Source of the DNA: Ignavibacteriota bacterium
GTDB taxonomy: Bacteria > Bacteroidota > Ignavibacteria > Palsa-1295
Direction: 5' to 3'
Assembly: GCA_963787835.1 (NCBI GenBank)
Contig: CAWBEI010000002.1
Location: 1,696,001-1,760,000 of the forward strand
Length of the DNA: 64,000 bases
In this document: positions 12,601-55,058 of the stretch, piece after piece
Position numbering within the stretch: position 1 is the stretch's first letter
How the letters are laid out: each line of letters starts with the position of its first letter
Made by a program: the position numbers and the translations under genes
Notes under the pieces: model-generated
What the model saw: the letters and a program-made list of their open reading frames with translations, nothing else
Database searches by the model: none
Told to the model about the DNA's origin: nothing

Positions 12601-14008
12601 GGCGGCTCAGGAACCGGAATCCAACCTGCTGCAACAGATATTGCAGAATGCGGTGGAAAAACCGCTCTTCGATTGGAATGGAACCCGGTTCAATTTTATT
12701 CAGACCAACGCCAGCCTGAATAATGCCCTTGCAGGTAATGGCTCTGGCATTACCAATTTCCTCGCTCGCGGATTTTTTGCTCCGGAAGACGATCTGGATG
12801 GGCCTTCGCGCGCCTATCAGTTAGGGCTTATTACCGATCCCTCCGGACGCTTGCTGTTCCATTGGCAAAACCGGTTCCCATTTCTCTGGTATTCTGTTCG
12901 CCCAGGGCTTCGGGCAGACGACCCGTTCGGCGGGAACGTCGATGTGACGGACGCCTTCAATCAGACCAATAATTTTGAATTAACGACCAGCCGCCCGTTG
13001 TGGAAAGGCGCATCCATCAGTCTGAACTGGAAGCTTTCCTTTGGCTTCGACGAACGCGATGCGCTCAACATTAACAGCGAGGGCGAGCCAAGCACGCTCT
13101 ATGAAGCAAAATCCGGAGATATTTCCCGCACGTTCTTTTCTATTCCTTCCCTCCCGTTCCTTGGTAATGTGTTCCAAAGCGGCATTATTAATGTAGGAGA
13201 GAAGTACAAGCAAATGGTGATGGCCGCCGGTGCGCCGAATGAAGATACTGCCCGCTTCGTGTTGCCGACAGCACAGCACAACCTTATCGAGCAGAATGCC
13301 TTTATGGAAGGATTTGAAACCCTACCATTCTTTGAGAGTGCGCTTCGGGAATATCTGCCACGGCTAAATTATTCCTTCACCTGGTCGGGGCTGGAGAAAT
13401 TTCCGTTGTTCAGCTTTGCGGACCACGCGAGTTTCCGCGACGCGTATAATGGAACCTACCGGCGCTCGTTCCGACAGGATCCCGGCGATACGCTCGATCT
13501 TACTTCCATGCAAACGATCGTCTATGGGTTCCGTCCGCTCATCGCCTTCGATATGTCGTGGGATAAGCTATGGAATGGCAAGCTCACCACCAGCCTCAAT
13601 TACGATACACAAACGCAATGGGCTGCCGATTATGCTTCCACGCGCATTACCGAGCAGCTTTCTACTACGTTTGGCATAACCGCGAATTATTCGAGGCAGG
13701 GTCTTAATATTCCGTTCCTCAAACTGAATCTCAAGAACGAACTCACGGCAAGCTTCACGCTCAGTGAGACCATCTCATCGAGCAGTTATTATAATTTCTG
13801 GACCATCGACCAAATACCAGGCGGCATTAGCGATGGAGGACTTACCAAAATTACGATCGAGCCGCGCGTGGGCTACAGCATGAGCCAGCAGCTTACCGTC
13901 GAGATGTTCTACCATTACGAGCGCACTACGCCGGCCGCAAGTGGACTGATCAGCCCGCCAACTTTGCTTGTCGAGGCAGGGTTCGATATTAAGCTGAAGA
14001 TACAGTAA
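6692..14008 (+). CDS. sprA: Type IX secretion system translocon SprA/Sov
   Basis: 2438 aa; GTIGDKL, EILQEFDAGNV, LFGLK, GSVRVTIGG..EGTDYRVDY, AYLDDFEG, WYQLRIPL and WWDELRL motifs; exact start uncertain. Confidence 0.92.
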   Translation: MRIISGNSWQTEHIASRAMGCAVALILVTSMLSLDSCRKPKEVEKNPNQTKTDTTAPDTSKGFISQQYDSLSHKFTDFFSSLLPRGKDTTKGFPMVTTPPPDLNPPVVTPDIPAEPGFLASPIKRKIEFDTNGNVVQRDVFLGSDVRSPVTTSFSDYIHAQEDQTITSGFEAAMHKQIDTGKTVDQQTGLLGDYNTIQIPIPPSIVPTIFGRPSINLKVNGDVGIHMAYRDQVTYATAGANFFGSEQGLDFKQEINISTNGTIGDKLKIGADWGSDRMFQYDNLLKFNYQGYPDEILQEFDAGNVTFNTPSQYIAPQQDLFGLKAIMRFGPLYVTALAAQKKGSRGSKSFGGGAGTATEHLIQPWTYRRNRFFLDTSFIKYYEPTLSTIPEGGSPLVQNGTVEVWQTTTQLTLINVRPAVAYYSLPASNAGYSSAMRSASGNGQTIINAHWVKMDTSRYTVDWNTGVLILSQDPEDVQTSLAVSYQTANGAQYGDRSTDQSDSTLVLKLIKPAGTFSNVAYPSWNNLLKNSYYIGGVGFDPTNFSGRIDLTAPGGHQIEYLSVASGGTPQKAISIMGLDRYNNSSPSNKTPDGLIDYGQQFTSDYIVDPKTGTIIFPYLQPFGSVISNYNAAQKRRDAKYVDDTNFYMPEIYNTIQSTLVQTETKLVNLDIKYTGGVSSTLNLGAFNLVEGSVRVTIGGTQLVEGTDYRVDYNSGTVTILNSDLINTGQINVEYDVHDVFSNATKNVLGMRAEVPLFDDQAIQKGDIGITALNYSASLPTLKTRQGEEPFSNWIIGADGSYKFDAPFLTDALNAMPIFNLKDKSSLAVKVDAAVSLPNPNTDVSPMPVDNGASIAYLDDFEGGLNEFPLYLNYGRWVPASQPMDSAFQARHPAGNNPDSAYWTNPINQLKGRTAWYPPTTMPYPGVGFPPLSGPAGIKPNEQTATTGQTATTMWYTFDPTQAGIYNPNPSSLGTRDNWGGMMQYAPGLNVAATNTDAIQFYIKVDALDPSDADTAKLRFDLGIINDDIIPDKKLETEDKAQNGRYEPGEDVGLDGLTDAQEQVQFGTKVPDPSNDDYGTDYLHLNGQEGNENDAFAGLTPDHEDLDASGSVNLSDAYYEYEIPLNMALNKYIIGGNPSQGWYQLRIPLADYSRIVGTNDSSFSNISYYRIWTKDVTHPVQFELFEFMMVGSQWTRGSVGLNPTNPIADTSLKIDYVNIWDNSGAPTNYSPPPGAATTLQPASTGYIPGNEQSLLMHIACIPDTARREAQRIFPTPNDLFNYQAMAIWVHGDSATVPTKPLNTIADTAGRVWVYWRFGSDQYDYYEYRLPLVGGWQNMHVDFNTLVNMKVERPSTNYTITQTDPNGVPGATYSVVGSPTFTNAPYFILGVQSETHQSCLTTDIWWDELRLLDANNKVGYAWNTSSQLKLAEFGTISGSIADQSADFHQVDEQFNTTRSANFNWNVTGVFAMDKLLPQWMEDKGSKLPLTISHVESIITPEYIVNTDINLANAVSAINTAPDLTASQKQYLVDSLTNNNQTLQVKNSFGMNDIALRFPGSFFLIPGFINRLDFGFGYTESYLRSPQYQYDYTFGWTVSGHYSLPPLPGLGLEPLKWWGTTTPIIGPYSQWKVNLTPSNVSFGISATRSRSISLEQLSTLTLPPEGSTTQDTLDILNSRVPVINRVFTATRGMQIDWQPFEGGMLSPKFNYALDVTSNLAPLETTTSWNQPTTYDANGNPIYNYDSVYYTQRSFHDILNDVFFKNGQLAQLGQDFSASQRVHMGTTPRLPGLFGFEKWVKPVFDYQVTYKWLNAQTGLQNAKQGAWNNTITTGLEFNLRDLGTMLFGKGFAEEAPQRGRHEERNRLGTTPEELQPQGFESRQTPLQGPQDQPRNQVERGEDLRPQSRPNPLGRSTYITDTMHKTTLETPPIDTVGKIHSHGIGTEGINDREYVVDTTLSPEAPPVAEGVVPELAAQEPESNLLQQILQNAVEKPLFDWNGTRFNFIQTNASLNNALAGNGSGITNFLARGFFAPEDDLDGPSRAYQLGLITDPSGRLLFHWQNRFPFLWYSVRPGLRADDPFGGNVDVTDAFNQTNNFELTTSRPLWKGASISLNWKLSFGFDERDALNINSEGEPSTLYEAKSGDISRTFFSIPSLPFLGNVFQSGIINVGEKYKQMVMAAGAPNEDTARFVLPTAQHNLIEQNAFMEGFETLPFFESALREYLPRLNYSFTWSGLEKFPLFSFADHASFRDAYNGTYRRSFRQDPGDTLDLTSMQTIVYGFRPLIAFDMSWDKLWNGKLTTSLNYDTQTQWAADYASTRITEQLSTTFGITANYSRQGLNIPFLKLNLKNELTASFTLSETISSSSYYNFWTIDQIPGGISDGGLTKITIEPRVGYSMSQQLTVEMFYHYERTTPAASGLISPPTLLVEAGFDIKLKIQ

Positions 14009-32307: not shown

Positions 32308-34551
32308 ATGCCGGACTACGACTTTCACACTTTATCATATGTTGATTTTCAAGTTCTAACTCGTGACTTGCTTCAAGAGGCGCTCGGAGTTCGGTTTCAA
32401 GCATTTAAGGCTGGTAAGGATCAGGGGATTGATTTGCTTCACGAAGTAGGACGAGGAAGGCGAATTGTTGTACAATGCAAACATTTCGGTGGCTCAACAT
32501 TCCGGTCGCTTCTTACTAGCTTAAAAAAGGAGCTTCCTGAGCTAAATCGTATCAATCCTACACGGTATATTTTATCCGTCTCGCTTCCGCTGAGCCTTAA
32601 GAATAAAGAAGCCGTCATAGAGCTTCTCAATCCCTTCATAAAATCGAGTCAGGACATCTTTGGAAGAGACGAATTAAATGGGCTGCTCGCTCAGTACCCC
32701 AAGGTTGAGGAATCGCATTTTAAATTATGGATAAGCAGCACAACAGTTCTCAATCAGATCATTCATAGTAAGACTGTTAATGTGACAAATTTCGCGTTGG
32801 AGAAAATAATTAGAAGAATTCCACTCTATGTGAGTAATAAGAGCTTTGATGAAGCACGTCTAATACTCGAGCGTTCTCACTCTTGCATAATCGCGGGAAT
32901 TCCAGGAATTGGAAAAACTACCCTTGCCGAGATTTTGATAATGCACTATCTTCGAGATGATTATCAGCTCGTTAAAGTGACATCTAATATAGATGAGGCC
33001 ATGGGAATTGGAAGGCAACACGACAAGCAGGTCTTTTATTATGACGATTTTCTCGGACAGACAAGCTTTGAAGAAAAAATTGGGAAATTAGGAAAAAACG
33101 AAGAGCAGGACTTAATTGACTTCATGGAGCATATTCAGCGGTCTCCGACGAAGAGATTCATTCTTACAACGCGTGAGTATATTTTGAACCAAGCCCGTGC
33201 TCATTATGAAAAGCTTCACCGCGATTTTGAAATCGAAAAATGCATCATTGACTTGGAAAGCTACACAAGACTGAATAGGGCACAAATTCTATACAATCAC
33301 GTCTTCTTTTCTAAACTTTCCGCAAAGTATAAGCGCGATCTCTTGAAAGAGGATCGTTATCTGTCGATCATTGACCATCCTAACTACAATCCTCGCATAA
33401 TGGAAATGATGACCATAAGATTTAAGGAGTCTTCCCTCAGGAGTCGAACATACTATAAGAGCTTTAAGATTGCTCTCGATAATCCTGAGAGTATTTGGTC
33501 GGAAGCGTTTGAACATCAAATTAGTGAGCCAGCTAAAGCACTTGTGCTTGTTTTGCTTTCGCTGGGAGGAAGCGAGTCACTCGATAGATTAGCAATGACC
33601 TTCGAAAAATATTACTTGTACCTATCAAACAAGTATAATTTCGAATCTTCATCAATGGATTTTTTAAATGCTCTAAGAGAGCTGGACGGTAGTTTCATAT
33701 CTTCCGAAAAGAATTCTGGCGATACATGGATTTCATATCAAAATCCATCTGTCCAAGATTTCGCGGAGAATTATGTGATAGCGAATCCAGACCATTTTCT
33801 GAATTTGTTTCACTCTGCTACAACTTTTGAACAGCTATACAGACTTTGGAATTTGAGAACCGAAGTGGAAGCGTCTTATCCACTTCCTCTCAAATCGGTT
33901 AGGGAAAAATACATCAAGGAACTCTTCACGCATATTCAAGATGAACACTTTCTAAATTATGAGAGCCGATTGCTGTTCCTCGGTCGAGCGGTCAAAGCTC
34001 TCTATGGAAATCTCGATAAATGGTTCCAACGCATCATGACTGAGATTGATGATTATTCAAAGCAATCTTTTGCGAATGTACCAGCACTCATTAGTTTACT
34101 AGGTCTGATTTATCGGGAAGGGCGCTTCTCTCGCTTAAGACCCAAACTTTTATCGAAGTTAAAAAGAAAAATAATTTCTAATTGCTATGGATTCAAGGAG
34201 TTTGAAGCTCTTGTTGATGCGTCATGGCTTCATCGATTTTTCTTGGATAGGGAATGGAAAGAATTAGGGTTTGGATTTGGAACATACATTGATCAAAGAT
34301 TTGATGAGGATCTTGTAGACGAAGACGATTCTGATAATCTGAAGACATTTGAAATTGATCTGGATCGCATTGCTTCAAGATTTGGCTACGATCCTTCGGC
34401 TCGAACTATTGAAATTCGCAACAAAATTGAAAAGATCGAAGAAAAGGCAAATTCCGAGTCCTCAAAATGGGAACGCGATAAACAATCGGTTGAAGAAATA
34501 GGCGAGGATGATGATATTGCTATAAAAACGCTATTCGCAACATTAGGCTAA
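32308..34551 (+). CDS. Restriction endonuclease (Mrr-like) fused to nSTAND3 NTPase; putative defence protein
   Basis: DF..L.RDLL, GKDQGIDL..VVQCKH (PD-QxK); Walker A GIPGIGKTT; Walker B YYDDFLG; FILTTREYIL; visibly AT-richer than flanks. Confidence 0.85.
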   Translation: MPDYDFHTLSYVDFQVLTRDLLQEALGVRFQAFKAGKDQGIDLLHEVGRGRRIVVQCKHFGGSTFRSLLTSLKKELPELNRINPTRYILSVSLPLSLKNKEAVIELLNPFIKSSQDIFGRDELNGLLAQYPKVEESHFKLWISSTTVLNQIIHSKTVNVTNFALEKIIRRIPLYVSNKSFDEARLILERSHSCIIAGIPGIGKTTLAEILIMHYLRDDYQLVKVTSNIDEAMGIGRQHDKQVFYYDDFLGQTSFEEKIGKLGKNEEQDLIDFMEHIQRSPTKRFILTTREYILNQARAHYEKLHRDFEIEKCIIDLESYTRLNRAQILYNHVFFSKLSAKYKRDLLKEDRYLSIIDHPNYNPRIMEMMTIRFKESSLRSRTYYKSFKIALDNPESIWSEAFEHQISEPAKALVLVLLSLGGSESLDRLAMTFEKYYLYLSNKYNFESSSMDFLNALRELDGSFISSEKNSGDTWISYQNPSVQDFAENYVIANPDHFLNLFHSATTFEQLYRLWNLRTEVEASYPLPLKSVREKYIKELFTHIQDEHFLNYESRLLFLGRAVKALYGNLDKWFQRIMTEIDDYSKQSFANVPALISLLGLIYREGRFSRLRPKLLSKLKRKIISNCYGFKEFEALVDASWLHRFFLDREWKELGFGFGTYIDQRFDEDLVDEDDSDNLKTFEIDLDRIASRFGYDPSARTIEIRNKIEKIEEKANSESSKWERDKQSVEEIGEDDDIAIKTLFATLG

Positions 34552-39111: not shown

Positions 39112-42100
39112 TTACTTACTCACCGTTACTTTGATCGTCGAGGAATTTTCACCGGCGATAAGTTTGCAGATGTAAGATCCCGAGGAAACAGCCGTTCCAC
39201 GGTCATCAGCGCCATCCCAGCGAACGGTATGGAATCCCTGACCGAGATCGCCATTGACGAGCGTCTTAACAACTTCACCAAGCTGATTATAGATCACGAG
39301 CGAACCGGAAGCATCAACGGGAACCGTGAAGCTGAATTCCGTAGATCCCAAAACAGGAGTGAACGGATTCGGATAGTTCTGCTCGAGCACGAAATCATTC
39401 GGTGCATCGATCTCAAGTTGAATCTCATTGGAGAGATGCTGCGCACCATTGACATCTGTCTGAAGCAGGCGGTAGGTGTAGGTGCCCGGCTTAACATTCT
39501 GATCGACGTAGCCGTATCCGGTTTCGGTCGAAGAGTTTGTTTCTTTGGCAGCAACATATCCGATATTCTCGAAGATATCATTAGAAGCTGCGAGCTTGCG
39601 TTGCACACTGAAACCAGTATTATTGACCTCGTTTGCAGTCGCCCACGTAAGCAGAGCCGCACCATTTTGCTGCTCGCCCTTGAGATAGAGCAATTGAACT
39701 GGCAATATGCCTTGCTCGCTCACCATGGCTCGAATCGAGGGGGTGTAGCTTCCAGCGCCGTAATAGTATGCGCCATTACCTCCGGAAGTTGTCCACGCCA
39801 AGATCGACGACCAAGGAATGCCGACATACGTATTCGTTGGCCACCAACCGATCGATGGAGTCCATTGTGCCCATCCACCGCTTCCGGCAGTAGCTTCAAC
39901 GGCCCATGCGCAACTGATATCGCCATCATTATTGGAACGGCTCCATTGTGTGCCATAGGGGTCATCATTAGCTGGCTCGATATCCGGTGAAATGTAGAAT
40001 GGATCCCATTCGCGAATGATGCCACCTCCACGAGAACAATCCGTGCCCAATGACATATTTTCCAACCCTAACTGGCTGACCGATGCCCAGTAAACGCCCT
40101 TCGAAGCACCATTGCTCGCCAACACGATAGGTTGCGGGAAAAGGTAGGATACGAATTGGTCGAAGCTGGGACCGCGTGTAGCTGCCACCGTTGCCTGAAC
40201 ACCTTCTTGCTCAAGGGTGTCGCCAGGAGTGCAGGAACCGGGTTCGCCAGAAAGTAAGCTAAGTCGGATCGCGTCTGGAGATTGATTTGCATCCCCAAAG
40301 TATGCTCGAATTCCGTAGAAGGTATCCTGAGTAGAAAGGGTAAACTTCATTGCGAAGCTGCCGCTTGTATTAACGAAGCCCACGCCTTCGCCTGTGATTT
40401 GCACGAGACCCGGCCAGTCATTACCCGAATTCAGCCCCGGATCCAGACCGGCAGCATCATAGGCAAATTCCTGTACTCCACCATTCGAGTTATTATCATC
40501 TACATTAAGAGCGAACAGAGTGTACGTTCCAGTGATGTTCGAAGGTGACGAGAAATTCGCCTGATCGAGCCATGCATCCACAGTGAAAATCGCGCTACTA
40601 CCGACGCCAGCATCCTGGGCATTCCAGTTCGGCAACTTGATGACCGTATCGGTTCCGCCATTGAGAGAATTTACCACAACAGCTTGCCAGTAAACGGTAT
40701 GACCGTTCGGATCGAGAATTTGCACTCGGATCGGAAATGCGATCTCAACATCCGTTGCCAAATTTGCGATCTTTACATAGACAGGAAGCGAGATAGCTTC
40801 TGATGCGGGAATCTTGGTGTACGGATTTACAACGCGCACCCACATGACCTCAATTTCAGGTTTGAGTGGCACGAGTACGGTCGGATTATCCACGAACCAA
40901 GGATCGTTGTCATCAGAGGGTGGTGGGATAGGAGGAGCGTCATTCTTAGACTTGAGTCTAAGTCGGAACCGGAAATCTGCAGTGAAGTAATTCGCATAAT
41001 TTTTCGCGGTTGTTGAAGATATTCCATCGATGTTTATCAGTCCTGTTTTCAAGTTCATGAAGAATTTTTTGAACTCAAAATCACGACCACCGTCGATTGC
41101 GGCAATCGGTGCCCAGGAACTGGCGGCGGGATTGCAACCGGGCTGGCTTGGTGCTTTGAAATTCGAGGAGAAGAGAATCGCCTTTCCGAAGCACGGAACC
41201 ATCGTTGACGTTAAGAACCGTCCATTCGGGTCCATACATGGAACCGGCATCCCAGGGGAATTGGAAGAAACCAAGGAATTTACCGGATCGCTGGAAGTCG
41301 AATGTCAAATTCGCAGTGGGTTTCCCCTGCAAATTGATCGGAAAGCTCACGAGGGTATCTCCGGTGTTCGAGGCACCGTAGGGAAGTCCGTTAACGTCTT
41401 CGTTGTCCAGCTGAATGACTGGAGAGACATACCCATCAGGGCCATCGCCTACACCGTCATTGTAGCGTGGTGGCGGAGGATCCCACGTGTAGGTCTCACC
41501 GTCAAGAACCGTCGCACCAAGAGAAACCCATAAGGTCTGATCGGGGATATCGGCCGTGACGGTCTTGCTATAGTTATCCGAAGGATCGAAGAATGGAACC
41601 GATGTGCGGCGAATTCCGAATACGCTGGTGCAGACGGTGTCATCGAATGGCCATTGATCTCCAATGTTGACATCGGCGGTATCGTAAGTGGTCGCAATGG
41701 CGCACGCATTAAAAGTCCCAAGCTCGCTGATAATGTTCGGATTGGTAGTGTACGGTGCAAACGTAGTATCTACGGTGGCACCAGGCAATACGCCGACGAG
41801 CGATACAACGCGGCTATACACTGCAATGCCTGTAACGGAATTGCGAATGGTGAAACGGCACTTGAACGTGTTCGTATTCACGGCATCGACGTTCTTGAAC
41901 GAAGCCTTAGGCGTAATAGACCCACCGAGGCAAATTTCATAATTCCTCGTTGGGAAGTCAACAGTCAGAGCGCGGACCTTATCAATCCACCGCTTGTACT
42001 TGATGGACCATTGCTTATCTTGGTTCCAGGACTGATTGCACGTCTTACAGGTTTTATTAACAGCTTCCCATCCACCGGCTCCGCTTGTACCCGTGCCGCC

Positions 42101-42988
42101 GGAGGGACCGTAAACAACGCCCGTACCCTGAGAGCCGTTTTCATTGACAAGCCCGATGGAGACATTGTCTCCAAAGGCCGCGTAGGCAAGCAGAGGGGGG
42201 AATCCGTTGATTCCGCCCGTGAAGCCACCGTAATTGACTTGAATGCTGGAATCCGTGTTAGAAAGAATGATTTGGAACTTCTTGCAATACAACTTATTCG
42301 CGCCCGGATTGGTCCATGCAAAACCACCCGGAAGTTGATTGACCGAATTGCTCGGGCGAAGACGGAAATTGTAATAGTTTACAATGAACGTATCCTGTGT
42401 TGCGGATGTGCGATAATACACTTTTGATGTATCCGCAGGACCGCCATGACGCAGATCCAGATCGGCCCAAAGGGCTGCAACGATCGCGTAGGGTGCGTTG
42501 CTATACTTCGACGCGAGATCTACGCGCTTCGGAGAGCAATAATTTGGGGAGTTCTGCGTAGCATACGTAAAGCCGAGGAAACCAATGAAACCATTGGAGG
42601 AAATATAAACGCTGTCATAATTCCCGCCATAGAAATTCCAATGATGACTGAGACCCATATAAATAGGACCGGCCATGCAATCGTTCAAGGTATCCATGAG
42701 CGATGGCGACGATAGATGCGTCGGATCGAAGAAATACTGACCGGCAGGAGCATTCTGCTGTGGACCAGTCCATATCCTATTCCACGAAGAAGGAAGATAG
42801 TTCGTATCGAGGAATTGGTACACTGGCCGCCAGGGTTCCGGGGCATTATCGTCCGAATCGACGATAAAATAACCCGTCGAGAGTGAACTTGGCTCACCGC
42901 GGCGATCTGAGGATTGCGCCTTGCCAATCGTCGCAAATGCGATCATGGAAAAGCACACAAGAAGCGACAGGTAGTACACACGTCTCAT
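39112..42988 (-). pseudogene. Large secreted T9SS cargo protein (~1291 aa if repaired), split by a +1 frameshift at ~41160
   Basis: ORF 41081-43069 carries the signal peptide (MRRVYY.. from 42988). ORF 39112-41274 carries LPVQL-Ig and a QNYPNPF/FlgD CTD. Removing one T from GAATTTCAAA joins LLLEF to KAPSQPGC. May be a sequencing error. Confidence 0.75.
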
Positions 42989-43271
42989 CTTTGTATTGTT
43001 GATTAAGTGATTAGTTAGAACGATGTTTGAATAAAAATGCATGATAAGGCATGCCGCATGATCGCTCATGCGCCCCGGGTATGATAACTCACGCCCGAAA
43101 TTGCCATTTCAATTGGTAGCTCCTGACATTTAATCAGAACCTAACAATCAATTTGAAACAACTTTGAAAAACAATCGAAGAAGGGAGCAACCGAAAGAAA
43201 ACCTGTCCCGAAAGGGTGGGAAGATTGATGATTCTTCATTCCCTGCCTCGAAAATTTTAATCTGATGGTTA

Positions 43272-43449: not shown

Positions 43450-44394
43450 TTATTGACAATCCACGGCTCCCTCATCAATCCATTTACCAATCTTTAGCAC
43501 TTCACTGGGTGAAAGAGCAGGTGCGGGGGATGGCGGCATTCGGTTATTTACATTAAATTGTGTGATTGCAGTATAGAGCCGACTTGACCGGGCGTTTCCA
43601 GGACGAGTGCTTCTTTCAGTGCCCGAAAACGTGGTACAGTCTAACCCTCCTTTTTGCGAGTTGGCATCATGGCAGCCGCTCATACCACAATTAGCGGAAA
43701 GTACAGGGAGGATATCCCTTGTGAAGCATAACATGGAGTTTGATGAGTTCAGGAGCGTTATTCTACTTTCAGCATAAACAGCGCTGTCAATAAGAGAAAC
43801 CGCACGGATCACGGTTTGAACGCCGTCATTTGAAATGCTGGAAGGCGCAGTGTAGAGTCCAGAATCACTGATTGATCCAGAGCCGCTTACTATTTCCCAC
43901 CGTAATTGTGGTATTGTGCTTTGCATCGTGATCGTGTCTATTAAAAACTGCTGGGTCGAATTCGTTAAAATCGTGTCCGATCCAGGGCTAATACTAAAGG
44001 CCGTGTCGGTCGGGCGGATAATCGAGATCAGACATGTTACCGAACGACTCGCATCTTCCTCTGATGTAACGGTTATCGTAGCTACCTGGTGTAGCGAGGT
44101 CAGGATGGGAGGGGCTTGAAAGATCGCGCTCGATCCATTTGGAGTTATGCTCCCATTGTTGCCGCCTCCATCCACTGACCAGGTTACGCTGCCTGTATTT
44201 GTAAATCCGAGAACGGATGCTGTAAGCACCATCTTAGAATTGAGAACCGCCACGGCCGAAACCGGTGAGATGTGGACTTCCGTTAGATCGACATCGGGAT
44301 TTCCATCTATGGTGTACTGACATCCAGAAAGCAAGGATGAAGTATAAAGTACAAGGAATGGAATAAACACTATCACTGCGAAGCGATGGCGCAT
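43450..44394 (-). CDS. Lipoprotein with two Ig-like domains and a C-terminal c-type cytochrome domain (CX4CH)
   Basis: Lipobox LSGC; two VTW/LRW Ig repeats; FTRDILPVL..NCGMSGCH..PGNARSSRL..RMPP..WIDEGA (Planctomycete cytochrome c-like); alternative start 44436. Confidence 0.8.
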   Translation of the reverse strand: MRHRFAVIVFIPFLVLYTSSLLSGCQYTIDGNPDVDLTEVHISPVSAVAVLNSKMVLTASVLGFTNTGSVTWSVDGGGNNGSITPNGSSAIFQAPPILTSLHQVATITVTSEEDASRSVTCLISIIRPTDTAFSISPGSDTILTNSTQQFLIDTITMQSTIPQLRWEIVSGSGSISDSGLYTAPSSISNDGVQTVIRAVSLIDSAVYAESRITLLNSSNSMLCFTRDILPVLSANCGMSGCHDANSQKGGLDCTTFSGTERSTRPGNARSSRLYTAITQFNVNNRMPPSPAPALSPSEVLKIGKWIDEGAVDCQ

Positions 44395-44441
44395 GAGAGT
44401 AATGAAATATGGCCTATTAATTTCTGGCTTCTTCATTTTCT

Positions 44442-45629
44442 TTAGTAGAAGAAATGTACTTGTGCCGTCCATTGCCCTGTGTGGGTACCCGTTCCGTAAA
44501 AGGGATTGAGATCGGTCACACGATATTCAGGCCGGATTTCAATATAAGGCAATGGGAAAAATTCTAATCCTGCGAGAAACCCGGTTGCGTAACCAAGTGA
44601 GACGCTCGGATACACTTCCGTCATACCCCAGTCGTATCTCCACTCCCAAATGAGCCAGTCGGCCAACTTGAGGTTCCCAATGATGCTGAAATTGCGGATG
44701 ATCTTGTTGGCTGCATCTTTGGAATATAGTCCCTCAAGATAAAATGTCGCTTTATCCGCTAAACCGAATCCACCAAAGCCATTTAACATTTCGAAATCGC
44801 CATTGACGAGTACAGAACCGCCAAACTCGCCATTAATACCCTCTTCTAGCAATTGGGGCCATAGCACGACTCGGCCGGAAACGGTTGGATGTGTAAAATC
44901 GAAGCTGGAAGAGACCGTCCCGATCGTGTTATCGATCTGCGCGAGATTTTTTGCATTGAAGACTCCGGCATTAACAGTCAGCCACTTAATTCCTTCGTAC
45001 GTAAGCTCACCGCCAACCTCATTATAATAAGGTGGAACGAGTGTAATGTTATTGTAGGCATCCATGGATGTGAACGAGGTGTGGTCATCCTGCAAAATGC
45101 CGATACTTGGCTCGATCATTCCAACGCGGATCGAAGGGAGCGTAATGTCCGGTTGATATTGCAGTGTGAGATCGTAATCTGTTTCTCCGGGATAAAGGCC
45201 GCTGGTGGTTCCGAATAGATCCATAAGTTTGCTTTCCTGGCTGCGGACATAAACGCTTGCCCAATTAATATCCGTATAGACTGCGACCTGGTGGTTGGGA
45301 ACGAACCCGAGCGAGGTCGAGAGCTGCATCGGAATAAGTAGCTCCTGATTTGTCTGCGAGACCCGCACTAATTGAAATCGAGCATCCCCTCCCGGATAGA
45401 TCTTGTTATTAAGAAGTCCATTCGATACGGCATTGCTATCCTGGGGACCCCATTGGAAAAGCCCAGTATAATTCATCATTTCCCATCCAAGCTCCGTGCG
45501 CAACCCGCCCCCATGTGGATTGAAATGGCAGACGGAACAGCGTGTGCCAGTAAGCAACGAGAAAAGGGGAACGGCCTGGCAGGTCTGTGCAAGAAGCAAA
45601 CAAAAAGCAATGGTCACTGGAACCTTCAT
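44442..45629 (-). CDS. Cyc2-like fused monoheme cytochrome c-porin
   Basis: Signal peptide CQA|V, then PLFSLLTGTRCSVCHFNPHGGGLR, then a multi-strand barrel ending QVHFFY. Confidence 0.7.
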   Translation of the reverse strand: MKVPVTIAFCLLLAQTCQAVPLFSLLTGTRCSVCHFNPHGGGLRTELGWEMMNYTGLFQWGPQDSNAVSNGLLNNKIYPGGDARFQLVRVSQTNQELLIPMQLSTSLGFVPNHQVAVYTDINWASVYVRSQESKLMDLFGTTSGLYPGETDYDLTLQYQPDITLPSIRVGMIEPSIGILQDDHTSFTSMDAYNNITLVPPYYNEVGGELTYEGIKWLTVNAGVFNAKNLAQIDNTIGTVSSSFDFTHPTVSGRVVLWPQLLEEGINGEFGGSVLVNGDFEMLNGFGGFGLADKATFYLEGLYSKDAANKIIRNFSIIGNLKLADWLIWEWRYDWGMTEVYPSVSLGYATGFLAGLEFFPLPYIEIRPEYRVTDLNPFYGTGTHTGQWTAQVHFFY

Positions 45630-45694
45630 ATTACTACGTAATATGATCTTAACGAAGTGCGAGCTTAAAAATAAATGCACCCGAAATATTATTA

Positions 45695-46177
45695 TTAAAT
45701 GATCTTGATATTTGCAATCCCGCCTACGGGAGGGTCTGGCAAAACTTGATAAGAGCTAAGCGGCAAGGTTGCCGGTCCCTGAACCACCGAACCATCCAGC
45801 GCAAACTGTGAATTATGACATAGGCAGACGATGTGGTCAGAAGCAGTTAGTTGGCTACTGACCGAGCAGCCCTGATGAGTGCATTTCATCGATAATGCAT
45901 GGACAAGACCATCCGGAGTAAGCGTAACAATAACGCCAAAGCTATCCGTCGGGGAAGTAAAATTTGGTACAACAACTGACGGGTTGCCCTGTGTAAGCGC
46001 CGATATATTCACAGCTAATTCACCGTTAGCGCCGAGAGGTGTGGAGGATTGTTCCGGTTCGAGAGGCACGGAGGTCGGTTCACAGCCTATAAGGAGCGGG
46101 AGGCTTACGTAACCGAGTACCGTGCCGCCAGCGATCTTTGTCAGGCCAGAAAGAAATTCTCTTCGAGTGTTTTTCAC
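45695..46177 (-). CDS. Rieske [2Fe-2S] protein, Tat-exported lipoprotein
   Basis: GTG start overlapping the upstream stop (GTGA); TRREFL twin-arginine motif, lipobox LIGC, CTHQGC and CLCHNSQF. Confidence 0.88.
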   Translation of the reverse strand: MKNTRREFLSGLTKIAGGTVLGYVSLPLLIGCEPTSVPLEPEQSSTPLGANGELAVNISALTQGNPSVVVPNFTSPTDSFGVIVTLTPDGLVHALSMKCTHQGCSVSSQLTASDHIVCLCHNSQFALDGSVVQGPATLPLSSYQVLPDPPVGGIANIKII

Positions 46178-50299: not shown

Positions 50300-52666
50300 T
50301 TGGTGATTCAAAAATTTATATTCATATTTCTTTTTATACTGGGGATATCATCGGCTGAAGCCCAAATTCCCAGTGGTAGTATTTTCTGGGTTCGGGCCGA
50401 TTCAGGTGTCGAGATTTCTGCTAACAAAGTTACTGTATGGCATGACCAAAGTGGCTTAGCCAACGATGCTACTCAGCAGGACTCAACCCAACGTCCGACC
50501 CTGCTTACCAATGGAATAAATGGACTTCCATGCATTCACTTTGATGGTAGCAGTTATTTCAATGCTCCTCCCTTTTTCCCATGCAACCATGATTATTCCG
50601 TCTCAGGTGTAATACGTCTATCGGACACTACTGTTGTCAATAATGTGCTTTCAGGTAATACTCACGCGATCTGGTTCAGTGGTTCTTGCTACCTTCGAGT
50701 ACTTCATGCCGTTTTCCCACTTGTTGCAGTGGCATCGGAGCCGGTACATCCGCAAGGGTCATGCTTTACAATCATTTACAATGCAGCGTTGAGTATGGTA
50801 CGAATATACATCGATGGCCGAATGAGCGATTCTCTATGGATAACTGCAAATTCGGATTCGACAGTTTATGTCGGAGCATTTCTGGGAGGATACAACATGC
50901 ATGGTGACATATCCGAACTCTTTGTTTACAATCGCCAACTTACTCCGCCAGAAGAAGCAGCAACGGATCTCTACCTGGAGACAAAATATGGGCTCACTCA
51001 GCGGCCTCCTCCGCAGCCGCCCGATACAACCTTCACCGACATTCCAGTTCACGGCAAGTTTTTTCCTCGTAATACTCTGGATTCCGCTGACTTCTTGATC
51101 GCCGGCACCTTACGAACACCTGGGTTCGACTCTATGTTTGTAGAAACAGATCGGAATGGGATTATATTGACTCGTCACACATCTCCGCTAATTTATTTCG
51201 ATGGTGGCGCACCATTCACATTCCCGTGTTCAATCCATGCGGAACTTAGTGAGTACACTCTCCGAGTCGGGGCTGTGCGGAATGGGGTGGACTCGATTCT
51301 CGCAACGCGCGACAGCCTTGTTTGTGGGGATGCTTTTCTGGTCAGCGGCCAATCCAACGCGTTCGTTGGGTTCCAAGTACAGGACAGCCTAAACGAATTT
51401 TGCCGCACCTTCGGAGAAGATATCGATCAAAACGTCGGAGACACACAGTGGAGCCTGGCTAAATCGCTTTGGCCGGGTGATTATAATATTGTTTGCGCCT
51501 GGAGCTATCAGCTTGCCCACTGTATAAACGACTCGCTTCATCTCCCAGTTTGCATTATTGACGGCGCCTCGCCTGGTGGAACTATCGAAGAGCACTTACC
51601 CAATAATTCCAATCATCTCGATATGGGTTCGTACTACGGGAGGATGCTTTACAGAACGGAGAAAGCTGGCCTTCAACATTCAATCAGGGCGATCTTTTGG
51701 GACCAGGGTGAATGGAATACAGACACAAATTACTACAACAACTTTACCGCGCTTCGGGCCGCCTGGCTGGAAGACTATCCTTCAACCGAAAAAATCTATG
51801 TCACGCAGATCCGGCCCAATGGGTGCGGCGATTACAGCGATCAACGGCCGCTCAAAGAGTTGCAGCGGCATTTCCAGGATTTGTTTCCTAACCTTGTCTG
51901 CTATGCCAGCGCAGCATTACCTCTGCATGACGGGTGCCATCTTGGCGACTCTGGCTACCGAGTTTGGGGATCCCAAATGTACAAGCTATTCGCTCGCGAC
52001 TTATACCATGGAACCGATACTATTGATATAGCGAGTCCAAGCGTTAGTTCGGCTTTTTATACGACGCCGGCTCATGATGAAATCGAGTTGCTCTTTAGTC
52101 CTCCTGATATAGAGTTGGCGATCACGCCAGACACCGTAATATTCGGAAGTCTCAGAAAAATGATAGATTTTTTATATCTCGACGGTGCAAGTGGGTCGGT
52201 ACAATCCATTCGCACGGAAGGTAATGCTATGTTTCTATCGGTGAGCAATCCTTCTGCTCAAACTCTGACGTATTTGCCAGACAGGTATTACCCTGACAGC
52301 AGTGGAATATATGAAGGACCATGGATAGTGAACGGGCGCGGAGTGGGAGCATTTATTTGGTATGGTCTTCCAATTTCCAATCAGCCACCATCGGCAGTAA
52401 AGACCTATGAAGTTGCAATGAATGATGTGGAAATCACCCCAAATCCTACATCAGGTGAGTTTTCGATTGATGCCAGCCAATATACCGGGCCTATCGAAGC
52501 GACGCTTATATCCGAAACCGGCGTGGAAGTCTGGCACAAGTCGATACCGGCGGATCATCCCAATGTGCTCTCGTTCGATATGACCCAGGAATGTTCGGGA
52601 TGCTATCTGCTGCGTTTATCGGATGGCATCCAGAGCCACGCATGGAAATTTATTCTCCAAAAGTAA
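50300..52666 (+). CDS. LamG-like + SGNH sialate O-acetylesterase (SASA/DUF303) + T9SS CTD
   Basis: WVRAD..WHDQSG LamG start; GQSN, WDQGE and DGCH catalytic motifs; TPNP..SGCYLLRL CTD. Confidence 0.85.
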   Translation: MVIQKFIFIFLFILGISSAEAQIPSGSIFWVRADSGVEISANKVTVWHDQSGLANDATQQDSTQRPTLLTNGINGLPCIHFDGSSYFNAPPFFPCNHDYSVSGVIRLSDTTVVNNVLSGNTHAIWFSGSCYLRVLHAVFPLVAVASEPVHPQGSCFTIIYNAALSMVRIYIDGRMSDSLWITANSDSTVYVGAFLGGYNMHGDISELFVYNRQLTPPEEAATDLYLETKYGLTQRPPPQPPDTTFTDIPVHGKFFPRNTLDSADFLIAGTLRTPGFDSMFVETDRNGIILTRHTSPLIYFDGGAPFTFPCSIHAELSEYTLRVGAVRNGVDSILATRDSLVCGDAFLVSGQSNAFVGFQVQDSLNEFCRTFGEDIDQNVGDTQWSLAKSLWPGDYNIVCAWSYQLAHCINDSLHLPVCIIDGASPGGTIEEHLPNNSNHLDMGSYYGRMLYRTEKAGLQHSIRAIFWDQGEWNTDTNYYNNFTALRAAWLEDYPSTEKIYVTQIRPNGCGDYSDQRPLKELQRHFQDLFPNLVCYASAALPLHDGCHLGDSGYRVWGSQMYKLFARDLYHGTDTIDIASPSVSSAFYTTPAHDEIELLFSPPDIELAITPDTVIFGSLRKMIDFLYLDGASGSVQSIRTEGNAMFLSVSNPSAQTLTYLPDRYYPDSSGIYEGPWIVNGRGVGAFIWYGLPISNQPPSAVKTYEVAMNDVEITPNPTSGEFSIDASQYTGPIEATLISETGVEVWHKSIPADHPNVLSFDMTQECSGCYLLRLSDGIQSHAWKFILQK

Positions 52667-52685
52667 GAGCGCAATTTTTATTAGA

Positions 52686-55058
52686 ATGACATCACTAATG
52701 CGTTTAATACAACGTTTTTTTTTCGTTTTGGCTGTTGTTGCATTTGTGGCAATAATTTTTTCGCCCGTTTGTTTTGCCCAAACAGCTCCCGAAGGCCCGA
52801 TCCTCTGGCTTCAAGCAGATAAGGGTATCGTTCAGCAAAACGGACATGTCGCCGTATGGCAGGACCAGAGCGGCAAAGGCAGCGACGCACGAATGGACGA
52901 TACCGGAATGAGACCCGACCTGATAACCGATTCCGGACACCCTGCGGTCCTATTCCGAGGATCGAATTACCTACAATGTCCTCCGATATTCCCTGCCAAT
53001 GCCGATTACACGATCGCAGTTGTCGCAAAGATCAATAATGTTAACAATACCAATAACCTCGTTTCTGGGAATGTTCACGCATTATATTTTGCAAATGATT
53101 CATTCCCTCGCGTTGTGCATTCTTGGTTCCAGCATCAGGAAGTTTCTCCGATCCCGGTATGGCGGAACGGTTTTTCCGCGATCACTGCATCCTACGATCA
53201 AGATTACGAACAGGCCACGCTTTTTGTCAACGGGCAATTCGCTGATTCATCCTGGGTGCTTTCAACGTCGGATAGCATCCTCTATATTGGCTCTTATTTA
53301 AGTAGTTATTTCCTCCAAGGTGAAATTGAAGAAGTGCTACTGTACAATAGGCAGTTGAATCCCGAGGAGTTGTCATCGCTACATGCTTATCTTATGGGCC
53401 GATACGGTATCTCTCAATCGCCTCCCGCTCCAAAACCAGACAGCACTTTTACGGCTATACCAGAGGAGTTTCAGCTATTCCCGAGAGGAGATGATGATTC
53501 GGCAACGGTTCCGATCAATGGGGCGATCTATCGTCAAAACTTCGATTCAATTTATGTGCTGCAATTTAAGAACGATACTTTAATCCATAGAATGACTCAG
53601 AGCCTCACTTATGATAATGGACGAGCCAGCTTTGCATTCTTTCCGCGTATTCACGCCGAACAGAGTGAGTATCGCTTCGAAGTTCATCTTGTTACCGGGG
53701 AATTGGATTCCCTGATCGCACAACGAGATAGTATTGCTTCCGGCAACATGTTCCTAATGGATGGACAAGGCTTCGCCTATTCCGGATTTGTTGTCGATAC
53801 ATTCAGGAACCAGTACTGTCGAACGTTTGGGCAACAAGCAAGCGAAAATGTGAGCGACACGTTCTGGTCGGAGTCCAACGACGATGTTGGTGGTGCAGAT
53901 CAGCGAATTCAGCAGGATCTACTTAGTTTCTCTCGCGTGGCTTCGTGCACCGTCAATGAGGCCTTGGGAGGAACCGATATTGAGGATCATTTTCGTAACG
54001 ATTCCGATAAATACGACCTGCGTACGATTTATGTCCGCACATTGTATCGAACTACAAAATCCGGTATGCTTGGAGCAGTAAAGGTCATGTTCTGGCTGCA
54101 AGGAAATGCTAACTACGCACCAGGATATTACCAGAAGTTCCTCAAACTTTATACCAGTTGGAAAGAAGATTATCCTAATCTAAAAAAAGTTTACTTACTA
54201 CAGAACCGTCCCAATAATTGCTATTTCGGGAACATCGACATGAGGGATGTTCAGCGAGTAATGGAAGATTCCATTCCCAGCGTCGAGCCAGTTTCTGCCG
54301 CTGCAATTCCATACAATGATGGATGCCACTATTATGACGATGGGTATCGAGCCTTAGGGGATCGATTCTATCAAGAGTTTGCTCGCGATTTCTATGGCGC
54401 GACCGATACGATGAACTTGCGGAGTGCGAATGCACTTGGTGCATGGTATTCAAAACCCGATCATACCCAAATTGCAATTCTCTACTCGCCCAACGACGTT
54501 CAACTGCATGTGACTGACGATACAACGATTGATGGAGTTACAGCTACCTTGAAAGATTACCTTAGTCCAGACGATACGACAACGCATGTTCAATCGATCG
54601 CCTTTGATGATGATACAATGTTTTTAAATCTCGATAACCCTTCTGTGGCACAATCGATCGATATGCTTCCCGATCAATATGATCTTGGGAGCGATTCCGT
54701 AGTGTATCAAGGTCCTTGGGTTGTTAACAGCCGCGGCATTGCTGCACTTCTCTGGTATCATCTACCCATATCCACTGAACCTCTTTCGGTAACCAGCCAG
54801 CCTGGTTCAATTCCCAATGCCGAAGTCATTCCCAATCCTGCTTCGAACGTGATTTCGATCGATGCCTCGGAGCTTTCCGGTCCGATCGAGGCCACCCTTG
54901 TGGCTGAGACCGGCGCGATTGTTTGGCAAAAGAACGTACCTTCCGATCATTCGTCGTCCATTGAATTCGATCTCAGCGACCAGAGTTCGGGATGTTATTT
55001 CCTGCGGCTGAGCAATGGCCGTTCAACGTTGGAACGTAAATTTATCTTGCAACACTGA
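52686..55058 (+). CDS. Tandem paralog of the preceding gene with a degenerate catalytic motif
   Basis: Same architecture; GQGF replaces GQSN and WLQGN replaces WDQGE; DGCH retained; start set at ATG 52686. Confidence 0.82.
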   Translation: MTSLMRLIQRFFFVLAVVAFVAIIFSPVCFAQTAPEGPILWLQADKGIVQQNGHVAVWQDQSGKGSDARMDDTGMRPDLITDSGHPAVLFRGSNYLQCPPIFPANADYTIAVVAKINNVNNTNNLVSGNVHALYFANDSFPRVVHSWFQHQEVSPIPVWRNGFSAITASYDQDYEQATLFVNGQFADSSWVLSTSDSILYIGSYLSSYFLQGEIEEVLLYNRQLNPEELSSLHAYLMGRYGISQSPPAPKPDSTFTAIPEEFQLFPRGDDDSATVPINGAIYRQNFDSIYVLQFKNDTLIHRMTQSLTYDNGRASFAFFPRIHAEQSEYRFEVHLVTGELDSLIAQRDSIASGNMFLMDGQGFAYSGFVVDTFRNQYCRTFGQQASENVSDTFWSESNDDVGGADQRIQQDLLSFSRVASCTVNEALGGTDIEDHFRNDSDKYDLRTIYVRTLYRTTKSGMLGAVKVMFWLQGNANYAPGYYQKFLKLYTSWKEDYPNLKKVYLLQNRPNNCYFGNIDMRDVQRVMEDSIPSVEPVSAAAIPYNDGCHYYDDGYRALGDRFYQEFARDFYGATDTMNLRSANALGAWYSKPDHTQIAILYSPNDVQLHVTDDTTIDGVTATLKDYLSPDDTTTHVQSIAFDDDTMFLNLDNPSVAQSIDMLPDQYDLGSDSVVYQGPWVVNSRGIAALLWYHLPISTEPLSVTSQPGSIPNAEVIPNPASNVISIDASELSGPIEATLVAETGAIVWQKNVPSDHSSSIEFDLSDQSSGCYFLRLSNGRSTLERKFILQH

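Follow-up and report, generated by a model that had tools for sequence, protein, structure and literature searches.

Cyc2 is the standard genomic marker of microbial iron oxidation. In the defining paper (Keffer et al., PMC8406198) it is recognized by the motif AXPXFAR[Q/K][T/Y] upstream and a PXL motif downstream of the haem-binding sequence CXXCH, in an OprP-like porin of at least 365 amino acids (aa), and the motif logos of the separate clusters (Fig. S8 of that paper) may show a wider variation. Cyc2-like genes have been reported, in general terms (PMC6344600), in metagenome-assembled genomes (MAGs) of Bacteroidetes and Ignavibacteriaceae. FoxE is described as a His/Met Fe(II)-oxidising cytochrome (PMC10654088), and YceI proteins have been linked to envelope peroxide defence (PMC9113575 and PMC8981238). 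The present analysis concerns three adjacent genes coding for a Rieske lipoprotein (P0001), a predicted haem-porin (P0002) and a cytochrome lipoprotein (P0003) in a 64,000-nucleotide stretch from an uncultured Kapabacteria-type soil bacterium of the Ignavibacteriota (assembly GCA_963787835.1, contig CAWBEI010000002.1, positions 1,696,001 to 1,760,000), hereafter the window. As judged from sequence comparisons, this trio is a real, conserved redox module of the cell envelope, built on an unnamed haem-porin family that is related to Cyc2 and distinct from it. Neither the association of a Cyc2-like porin with a Rieske lipoprotein nor a Rieske protein that serves an outer-membrane cytochrome was encountered in the full-text literature searched, in which most subscription papers were lacking.

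Organization of the locus

The three genes and their main motifs are the following:
45695..46177, minus strand: Rieske lipoprotein P0001, 160 aa (PF00355, E 7e-13); its GTG start overlaps the stop of the upstream LysE gene.
44442..45629, minus strand: haem-porin P0002, 395 aa, a predicted monohaem cytochrome-porin fusion with signal peptide (residues 1-19), haem plug (about 20-55) and predicted 16-strand OprP-like barrel (about 77-395).
45525..45539, minus strand: CSVCH haem-attachment motif of P0002, with AVPLFSLLTGTR before it and FNPHGGGLR after it.
45081..45089, minus strand: DDH motif (D181-D182-H183) of P0002, in the long loop after strand 5.
43450..44436, minus strand: cytochrome lipoprotein P0003, 328 aa, two Ig-like domains followed by a PSCyt1 domain at the C-terminus; Met15 is a possible start.
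43669..43689, minus strand: CGMSGCH (C-x4-CH), atypical haem motif of P0003; Met300, in the sequence RMPP, is the likely distal ligand.

The tight packing of the three minus-strand genes, pointed out in an earlier note made from the bare sequence, was borne out by intergenic gaps of 65 bases (Rieske/barrel) and 5 bases (barrel/cytochrome). Three DNA runs, all of one study, gave short-read contigs that cover the trio in part; they showed zero letter differences, and one of them spans the CSVCH motif of P0002 without any difference. The DNA matching the trio comes from soil metagenomes of one study, and no RNA dataset was listed among those that contain it. No sign of recent transfer was found in the GC content of the trio (47.9%, versus 50.1% for the genome). 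Promoter and terminator scans gave values near the level of shuffled sequence (17 versus 12.1±3.3 and 5 versus 7.8±3.2, respectively).

The haem-porin and its relation to Cyc2

P0002 begins with a signal peptide, read by eye and from hydropathy, which is followed by VPLFSLLTGTRCSVCH, and the protein ends in FY. It matched no Pfam or NCBIfam family. A hit to the LIC11213 family scored far below the cut-off and was set aside. The AlphaFold model obtained from 63 sequences (pLDDT 82.8, pTM 0.82) contains 16 strands, by manual count of the listed elements, and the known fold closest to it is that of OprP, with Z 24.6 and an rmsd of 2.6 A for 283 residues; a sequence search of solved structures gave no significant match. 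The CxxCH motif was present in 103 of the 121 close homologues of the barrel, the other 18 being N-terminally short, and in 121 of 150 representative relatives, the rest of which are also N-terminally short. Residues C31, C34, H35, R84 and D182 were invariant in all 108 aligned full-length relatives, and M101 (105/108), H392 (103/108) and H183 (98/108) were nearly so; D181 was present in 95/108. These data support the barrel with an N-terminal haem motif proposed in the earlier note. The long loop after strand 5 would fold into the pore, as in other 16-strand porins, and its DDH motif is a candidate metal or haem ligand site that appears specific to the family; DHT was found in 2/50 and 1/21 canonical-motif Cyc2 sequences. 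Concerning fusion forms, a second cofactor motif was found in 0/265 relatives, and no relatives of 801-2285 aa were recovered in a weak search that covered lengths of 693-800 aa only among the best 150 matches.

When compared with the published Cyc2 description, P0002 has the signal peptide, a single N-terminal CXXCH, the predicted 16-strand OprO/OprP-like barrel and sufficient length (395 aa), and its upstream motif is AVPLFSLLT instead of AXPXFAR[Q/K][T/Y]. The upstream Cyc2 motif was found in 0/103 close and 0/121 representative relatives, and the same figures (0/103 and 0/121) were obtained for the downstream PXL motif; the upstream motif was recovered in 39/50 sequences of a positive control set built on a canonical-motif protein of the same genome. 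P0002 is thus, as predicted from its sequence, built like a Cyc2-type cytochrome-porin, but the definition in print does not admit it as a member of Cyc2. The earlier note, which had called the barrel Cyc2-like while warning that iron oxidation was not established, was right about the architecture and in its caution. The genome has its canonical-motif Cyc2 elsewhere (AVPVFARKY..CFTCH..PPLL, C4:167131-168411), followed by a dihaem and a monohaem cytochrome c and by a full cbb3 oxidase cluster, and the whole span (C4:167131-177677) has the classic gene layout of iron oxidation. This protein was not detected by the profile of the haem-porin family.

Profile-profile alignment with hhalign matched the family to a profile of 50 homologues of this canonical-motif protein with 98.6% probability (E 7e-16, 321 columns). 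This whole-length match was rejected as proof of Cyc2 membership, because a haem-less control scored as high: the barrel-only profile matched 30 haem-less porins with 98.1% (E 9e-14), and four canonical-motif Cyc2 sets with 95.0, 75.5, 3.5 and 1.9%. Since haem-less porins match the barrel at least as well, the likeness of fold says little on function. Comparison of the haem plugs gave E-values of 3e-9 to 3e-8 for the family versus canonical sets, and of 2e-16 to 1e-26 for canonical sets versus each other. An intermediate motif, PxF[AS]xR, was observed in 15/18 distant barrels. In a quick tree of 64 rows, in which the Cyc2 references were motif-defined genome hits without a characterised Cyc2, all 31 family members fell on one branch (SH-aLRT 100); a tree joining the family with FARKY-type Cyc2 was not rejected (approximately unbiased (AU) test, p 0.72), and the support of the canonical set was only 44. 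The family is thus a branch of its own in this tree, and with respect to Cyc2 clusters 1-3 it may stand either apart from or together with the FARKY-type proteins. The haem plug of the family is, on these alignments, homologous to Cyc2 plugs but apart from them.

Three loci (L153, L162 and L163) from a different class of the phylum, to which the inferred label Chlorobiaceae probably applies, have one or two FARKY-type Cyc2 genes that are immediately followed by genes for a Rieske protein and cytochrome b.

The Rieske and cytochrome lipoproteins

P0001 shows the twin-arginine motif TRREFL, a lipobox (LIG-C32) and both Rieske boxes, C99-T-H101..C104 and C118-L-C120-H121, which confirms its earlier description as a twin-arginine Rieske lipoprotein. 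The cysteines of the disulfide are present and the second box has the Ser, but Phe replaces the Tyr. Disulfide-type Rieske clusters have positive potentials, and by general rules the combination of Ser with Phe in place of Tyr would give a positive, not maximal, potential. Residues R5, R6, C32, C99, H101, C104, C118, C120 and H121 were invariant in 60 aligned relatives. Among the Rieske neighbours of the barrel, the twin-arginine motif was found in 84/88, the lipobox (by regular expression) in 72/88 and the disulfide cysteines in 77/88. P0001 scored far below the cut-offs of the PetC, PetA-type and QcrA families; the best solved matches of its profile were Rieske proteins of the b6f/bc1 type, with PDB 5cxm (E 6e-20), which we take to be PetC3, at the top.

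As a possible subunit of a Rieske/cytochrome b complex, P0001 has the disulfide-type 2Fe-2S boxes but lacks both adjacency to cytochrome b and an uncleaved helix. In agreement with the earlier note, no cytochrome b gene was found among the open reading frames (ORFs) flanking the trio, and the only one in the genome lies on contig C7 with its own adjacent Rieske gene. Since this cytochrome b has its own Rieske protein and the lipobox cysteine is invariant in the 60 relatives, the Rieske protein of the window is not an orphaned complex III subunit.

P0003 has a lipobox (LSG-C39) and a PSCyt1 domain (PF07635) that scored 29.9 bits, above the cut-off of 22. Its model (pLDDT 70, pTM 0.37) includes two beta-sandwich domains similar to tandem Ig/cadherin folds, so that the lipoprotein with two Ig spacers and a cytochrome c domain of the earlier note was also recovered. 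The best solved relative of the haem-domain profile, built from 26 sequences, was FoxE (5mab, E 1.7e-8), and the C, C and H of the haem motif and the distal M were invariant in the 26 aligned domains. In neighbouring PSCyt1 domains the motif at the same position was C-x4-CH in 60/68, CxxCH in 7/68 and C-x3-CH in 1/68; the CxxCH variants support a predicted covalent attachment of haem to the C-x4-CH motif.

Gene neighbourhoods and distribution of the family

Neighbouring genes have been counted in the best 80 of 151 confirmed loci, of which 61 have at least 2.5 kb of flank on both sides (well-flanked loci), and a Rieske gene was counted when it was on the same strand, had an intact motif and lay at most 2.5 kb from the barrel. 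A Rieske gene was found in 70/80 loci (59/61 well-flanked), whereas about 0.01 per locus is expected by chance from the six Rieske ORFs of the genome, in loci that are kin and not independent. A PSCyt1 gene was present near the barrel in 56/80 loci (44/61), and both partners together in 51/80 (43/61). The Met-ligand cytochrome of the window type lay beside the barrel in 25/80 loci (18/61) and a short His-type PSCyt1 lipoprotein in 31/80 (26/61); no PSCyt1 cytochrome was found in 17/61 well-flanked loci, and the exact trio with an intact Rieske protein occurred in 17/61. The synteny that the earlier note proposed to examine was thus observed as co-occurrence, not as a fixed unit. Nor does the trio make up the whole module, as two proteins encoded outside the window usually accompany the barrel: a two-helix membrane protein of about 100 aa with a DELFG hairpin (62/80; 48/61), which has no Pfam match and fell only in unnamed clusters of a protein atlas, and YceI (31/80; 23/61). 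In the genome of the window these two genes are paired on another contig (C4:342214-343438), adjoining a dihaem cytochrome c gene. A 340-aa lipoprotein flanks the barrel in 31/80 loci, and the same genome has a stand-alone copy of it. The three observations that the earlier note had named as fatal to its proposal (no barrel predicted, CxxCH not conserved, no co-occurrence of the genes elsewhere) were not made.

At least five different gene orders were seen, namely Rieske-barrel-cytochrome, Rieske-cytochrome-barrel, cytochrome-lipoprotein-barrel-small-Rieske, barrel-small-YceI-Rieske and Rieske-barrel-YceI-small, "small" being the two-helix protein. The last one was found in MAGs titled Myxococcota or Deltaproteobacteria, with a GC content of 0.64-0.70, the barrels of which form one branch within the haem-porin family tree (Myxococcota-titled loci L095, L099, L106, L109 and L114). 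Sequence distances of the barrel and its partners were correlated (rho 0.63-0.82), which was not taken as support because shared descent gives the same result.

With a cut-off of E<=1e-30 a representative library contained 149 clusters of the barrel family, and the number rose to 1,381 when E<=0.001 was allowed. In 400 sampled genomes of the phylum, a full-length barrel (E<1e-30, manual count) was found in 64/99 genomes of the same class and in 1/301 of other classes, so that roughly two in three of the genomes sampled from this class carry a full-length member of a family for which Pfam and NCBIfam have no model. The source names of the close homologues indicate Candidatus Kapabacteria, and the similar clusters in a protein atlas, none of them named, belong most often to the phyla Bacteroidota, Bdellovibrionota and Myxococcota, which is taken as a lead only. 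Five loci (L092, L113, L060, L062 and L081) have been left out of the family range, as their titles (Enterobacteriaceae, Klebsiella, Didemnitutus, Hyphomicrobiales and Chitinophagaceae) are probably mislabelled; these titles do not fit the neighbourhoods and, for L092, L060 and L062, do not fit the tree either.

About 35 matches had E-values between 1e-35 and 1e-75, and twenty distant barrels were chosen from them. Directly downstream of 18/20 there is at least one PSCyt1 gene and at most three, and Rieske, YceI or the small protein were found within about 4 kb in 0/20. Thirteen other distant barrels had neither a Rieske nor a PSCyt1 gene within 1.5 kb, and a gene with CxxCH was adjacent at 8 of those 13. 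With PSCyt1 beside 18 of the 20 distant barrels and Rieske beside none of them, barrel and cytochrome look like the older pairing; the Rieske protein looks like the constant partner of the Kapabacteria branch, and the window trio like the overlap of both pairings, as far as gene neighbourhoods indicate. A Rieske-like regular-expression match beside the distant barrel L023 was discarded, since it overlaps the barrel frame.

A distant paralogue of the barrel (PRFAL.RGEANCxxCH) was located between ribF and a biotin-carrier gene in loci L026, L027, L028, L029 and L030, which come from several genomes of the same family and contain no Rieske gene within 1.5 kb. The genes at L141:2619-3392, L136:793-1461 and L166:2410-3939 encode bacterial proteins whose C-terminal part is a Temptin domain bearing a CxxCH motif and which have a tail for type IX secretion; two of these genes lie directly upstream of distant family barrels, and the haem region of the proteins, which are possible secreted cytochromes, resembles the barrel plug.

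Redox setting of the genome

The genome encodes cytochrome c assembly genes, ACIII, and caa3 and cbb3 oxidases. None of its ORFs exceeds five CxxCH motifs, and no multihaem cytochromes were found beyond ACIII, which argues against a multihaem outward conduit. RuBisCO was not found in the genome, which is 97.9% complete, other fixation routes not having been searched, and no imelysin was found either.

A parallel locus (C2:705034-709969) includes Fur, a WD40 protein, a DHOR cytochrome (two ORFs, probably due to a frameshift), a second Rieske lipoprotein with a twin-arginine (Tat) signal and a haem-less barrel. The barrels closest to the latter have a Rieske neighbour in 8/8 cases and a DHOR gene in 7/8. 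Stand-alone paralogues are a dihaem Ig-PSCyt1 lipoprotein (C4:203354-204589), a short PSCyt1 lipoprotein of the His type (C5:300515-300910), a further Rieske lipoprotein with a Tat signal (C3:498967-499473) and the 340-aa lipoprotein mentioned above (C6:7229-8266).

Proposed function and alternative explanations

The interpretation preferred here, to which a probability slightly short of even is assigned, is that the predicted outer-membrane haem-porin and the two redox lipoproteins constitute an inward electron-uptake chain for a soluble donor from outside the cell. The chain would begin with a small reductant, most likely Fe(II) in chelated form or a humic-type quinone in its reduced state, which passes into the 16-strand pore and gives its electron to the haem plug, possibly at the conserved DDH loop. 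From there the electron would be accepted by the Rieske lipoprotein, which is exported by Tat and held in the envelope instead of in a cytochrome b complex, a role suggested by the gene linkage and by its disulfide-type cluster of probably fairly high potential, and the His/Met cytochrome, on its stalk of two Ig domains, may ferry it across the periplasm to the caa3 or cbb3 oxidase. YceI, probably a carrier of isoprenoid quinones, and the two-helix protein could tie the module to the inner membrane, and the whole would supplement the respiration of a heterotroph rather than sustain autotrophy. The direction that asks for the fewest assumptions is inward, to oxygen, given the disulfide-type Rieske protein, the His/Met cytochrome, the single haem of the barrel, the lack of multihaem cytochromes beyond ACIII and the presence of caa3 and cbb3 oxidases. 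In favour of this interpretation, P0002 has the build of Cyc2, the cytochrome domain is homologous to FoxE, and each partner of the module (Rieske, PSCyt1, small protein and YceI) has to do with redox reactions or quinones.

Several results weigh against this interpretation. Neither Cyc2 motif occurs in the relatives, and haem-less porins match the barrel as well as Cyc2 does. The presence of the family in 64 of the 99 same-class genomes fits envelope housekeeping as well as an energy pathway, and this class-wide spread, together with the separate canonical-motif Cyc2, also speaks against a simple iron oxidase. The cytochrome is missing or of the other subtype in many loci (17/61 and 26/61, respectively), and the Rieske gene is missing near 20/20 and 13/13 distant barrels. 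The likeness to FoxE is not specific, since PSCyt1 is a wide family. Finally, no oxidase or quinol-oxidising gene was seen among the 45 commonest neighbour clusters, 19 representatives of which were scanned.

Maintenance of the envelope redox state is an unlikely alternative, although part of the evidence agrees with it. YceI would bring quinol, the Rieske protein and the cytochrome would relay electrons, and the haem-porin would be the terminal site for radicals or peroxides, so that the outer membrane and periplasm would be kept reduced or detoxified. YceI binds isoprenoid quinones and is paired with cytochrome b561 in a model of lipid-peroxyl defence (PMC9113575), PetC3 is a periplasmic Rieske lipoprotein linked to cell-envelope homeostasis (PMC12341915), and the family is class-wide; however, YceI was beside the barrel in only 23/61 loci and 0/20 distant ones, and no cytochrome b561 was seen among the scanned neighbour representatives. 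P0002 could also be a functional equivalent of Cyc2, an enzyme devoted to Fe(II) oxidation in which the FARQT motif was lost by drift and for which the Rieske protein and the cytochrome replace rusticyanin or Cyc1. The identical spacing A-x-P-x-F-x4-G-x-x-CxxCH, the whole-length profile match, the AU result for FARKY-type Cyc2, the FoxE-like partner and the conserved acidic/His loop agree with it, acidic pore residues having been reported as Fe sites in Cyc2 of A. ferrooxidans (PMC13741234). It is nevertheless considered quite improbable in view of the missing signature motifs, the well-supported separate branch, the canonical-motif Cyc2 already placed before two cytochromes and a cbb3 oxidase, and the RuBisCO result given above.

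The same low probability is given to a redox-coupled uptake of metal, in which iron or some other metal would pass through the pore and have its redox state changed for import by the haem, the Rieske protein and the cytochrome. The C2 locus with its Fur, DHOR, Tat Rieske lipoprotein and haem-less barrel points in this direction, as do the DDH loop and the fact that the family of that haem-less barrel is the best profile match to the haem-porin family; on the other side, no TonB receptor, permease or imelysin was detected among the scanned neighbour representatives, imelysin is missing from the genome, and no Fur-box match was found in the window with an enterobacterial-type consensus, a weak test in this phylum. 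Electron transfer in the outward direction, with Fe(III), Mn(IV) or humic matter as acceptor, is very unlikely. Cyc2-like genes have been reported in relatives of Fe(III) reducers, including Ignavibacteriaceae (PMC6344600), and of the CxxCH genes adjoining 8/13 distant barrels the two tested have tails of the type IX secretion system, but a single haem, a disulfide-type Rieske protein and a His/Met cytochrome generally indicate positive potentials, and multihaem cytochromes are confined to ACIII. It is hardly credible that common descent alone keeps the three genes side by side and that their products do not work together: the loci are kin, the partners vary and the genome has further stand-alone Rieske and PSCyt1 lipoproteins, but the linkage survives the shuffling of gene order and appears in Myxococcota-titled MAGs, and that of barrel and cytochrome reaches the distant barrels.

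A bolder extension of the electron-uptake interpretation is regarded as rather doubtful. It would make the haem-porins a second, class-wide lineage, sister to Cyc2 and missed by the Cyc2 motif, which in Kapabacteria and some Myxococcota forms a new trans-envelope chain: the Rieske protein would dock on the outer-membrane haem, YceI-borne quinone and the small anchor would couple it to the inner membrane, and heterotrophs of soil and freshwater would draw electrons from reduced iron or humic matter. The family has the build of the iron-oxidation marker and fails its signature. Either surveys greatly underestimate how common extracellular electron uptake is among ordinary heterotrophs, or haem-porins also do something that has nothing to do with iron. 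The latter, if true, would be a caution against calling every Cyc2-like gene an iron oxidase. The three proteins are small, and the same genome offers a canonical-motif Cyc2 for a side-by-side comparison with the haem-porin.

Other features of the window

The LysE, glycosyltransferase and ECF sigma genes upstream of the trio accompany it in only 8-11 close loci and have been treated as context. Elsewhere in the window, a SprA-type secretion translocon is encoded at 6692-14008, an nSTAND3 NTPase (a possible defence gene) at 32308-34551, and two tandem paralogous secreted proteins with esterase/lectin domains at 50300-55058. Two overlapping ORFs at 39112-43069 resemble a single large type IX-secreted protein broken by a frameshift, for which an assembly error is likely, since one short-read contig (depth 2.9) lacks the base at 41158.

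Comparison with known systems

MtrAB, PioAB and MtoAB resemble the trio in that an outer-membrane barrel is tied to periplasmic redox partners, among them an Fe-S partner in the case of PioC; however, they consist of a 26-strand barrel and a separate decahaem cytochrome, whereas here one haem is fused to a predicted 16-strand barrel. The YceI lipocalin that works with cytochrome b561 (BcnA/LcoA; PMC9113575) is, as in this module, linked to envelope redox proteins, but no cytochrome b561 was seen in the scanned neighbours and the redox partner is here in the outer membrane. In Flavobacteria, Rieske, YceI and cytochrome genes may be clustered with a DUF5777 barrel; a search for DUF5777 gave no match in the present genome and none in the controls, and a metagenome scan with YceI yielded 2 loci.

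The haem domain of P0003 aligns end to end, including the RMPP methionine, with FoxE of Rhodobacter ferrooxidans SW2. FoxE binds two haems and is encoded in the foxEYZ operon, in contrast to the monohaem C-x4-CH lipoprotein on two Ig domains found here, and neither FoxY nor FoxZ was among the scanned neighbours. The PetC3-type Rieske lipoproteins of cyanobacteria (PMC12341915) are, like P0001, exported lipoproteins outside the cytochrome b complex, and the difference lies in the tie of the Rieske gene to a haem-porin.

The Cyc2 proteins themselves, as represented by A. ferrooxidans Cyc2, Mariprofundus Cyc2PV-1 and Leptospirillum Cyt572 (PMC8406198 and PMC13741234), share with P0002 the signal peptide, one CxxCH, the AxPxF spacing, a predicted 16-strand OprO/OprP-like barrel and a length of about 400 aa. 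The sequence FAR[Q/K][T/Y] of Cyc2 is FSLLT in P0002 and its PxL is xxPxGGGxR; M101, DDH and H392 are specific to the haem-porin family, which forms its own branch of the tree. The partners also differ, with c4 cytochromes, rusticyanin and an oxidase accompanying Cyc2, and Rieske, PSCyt1, YceI and the two-helix protein accompanying the haem-porin.

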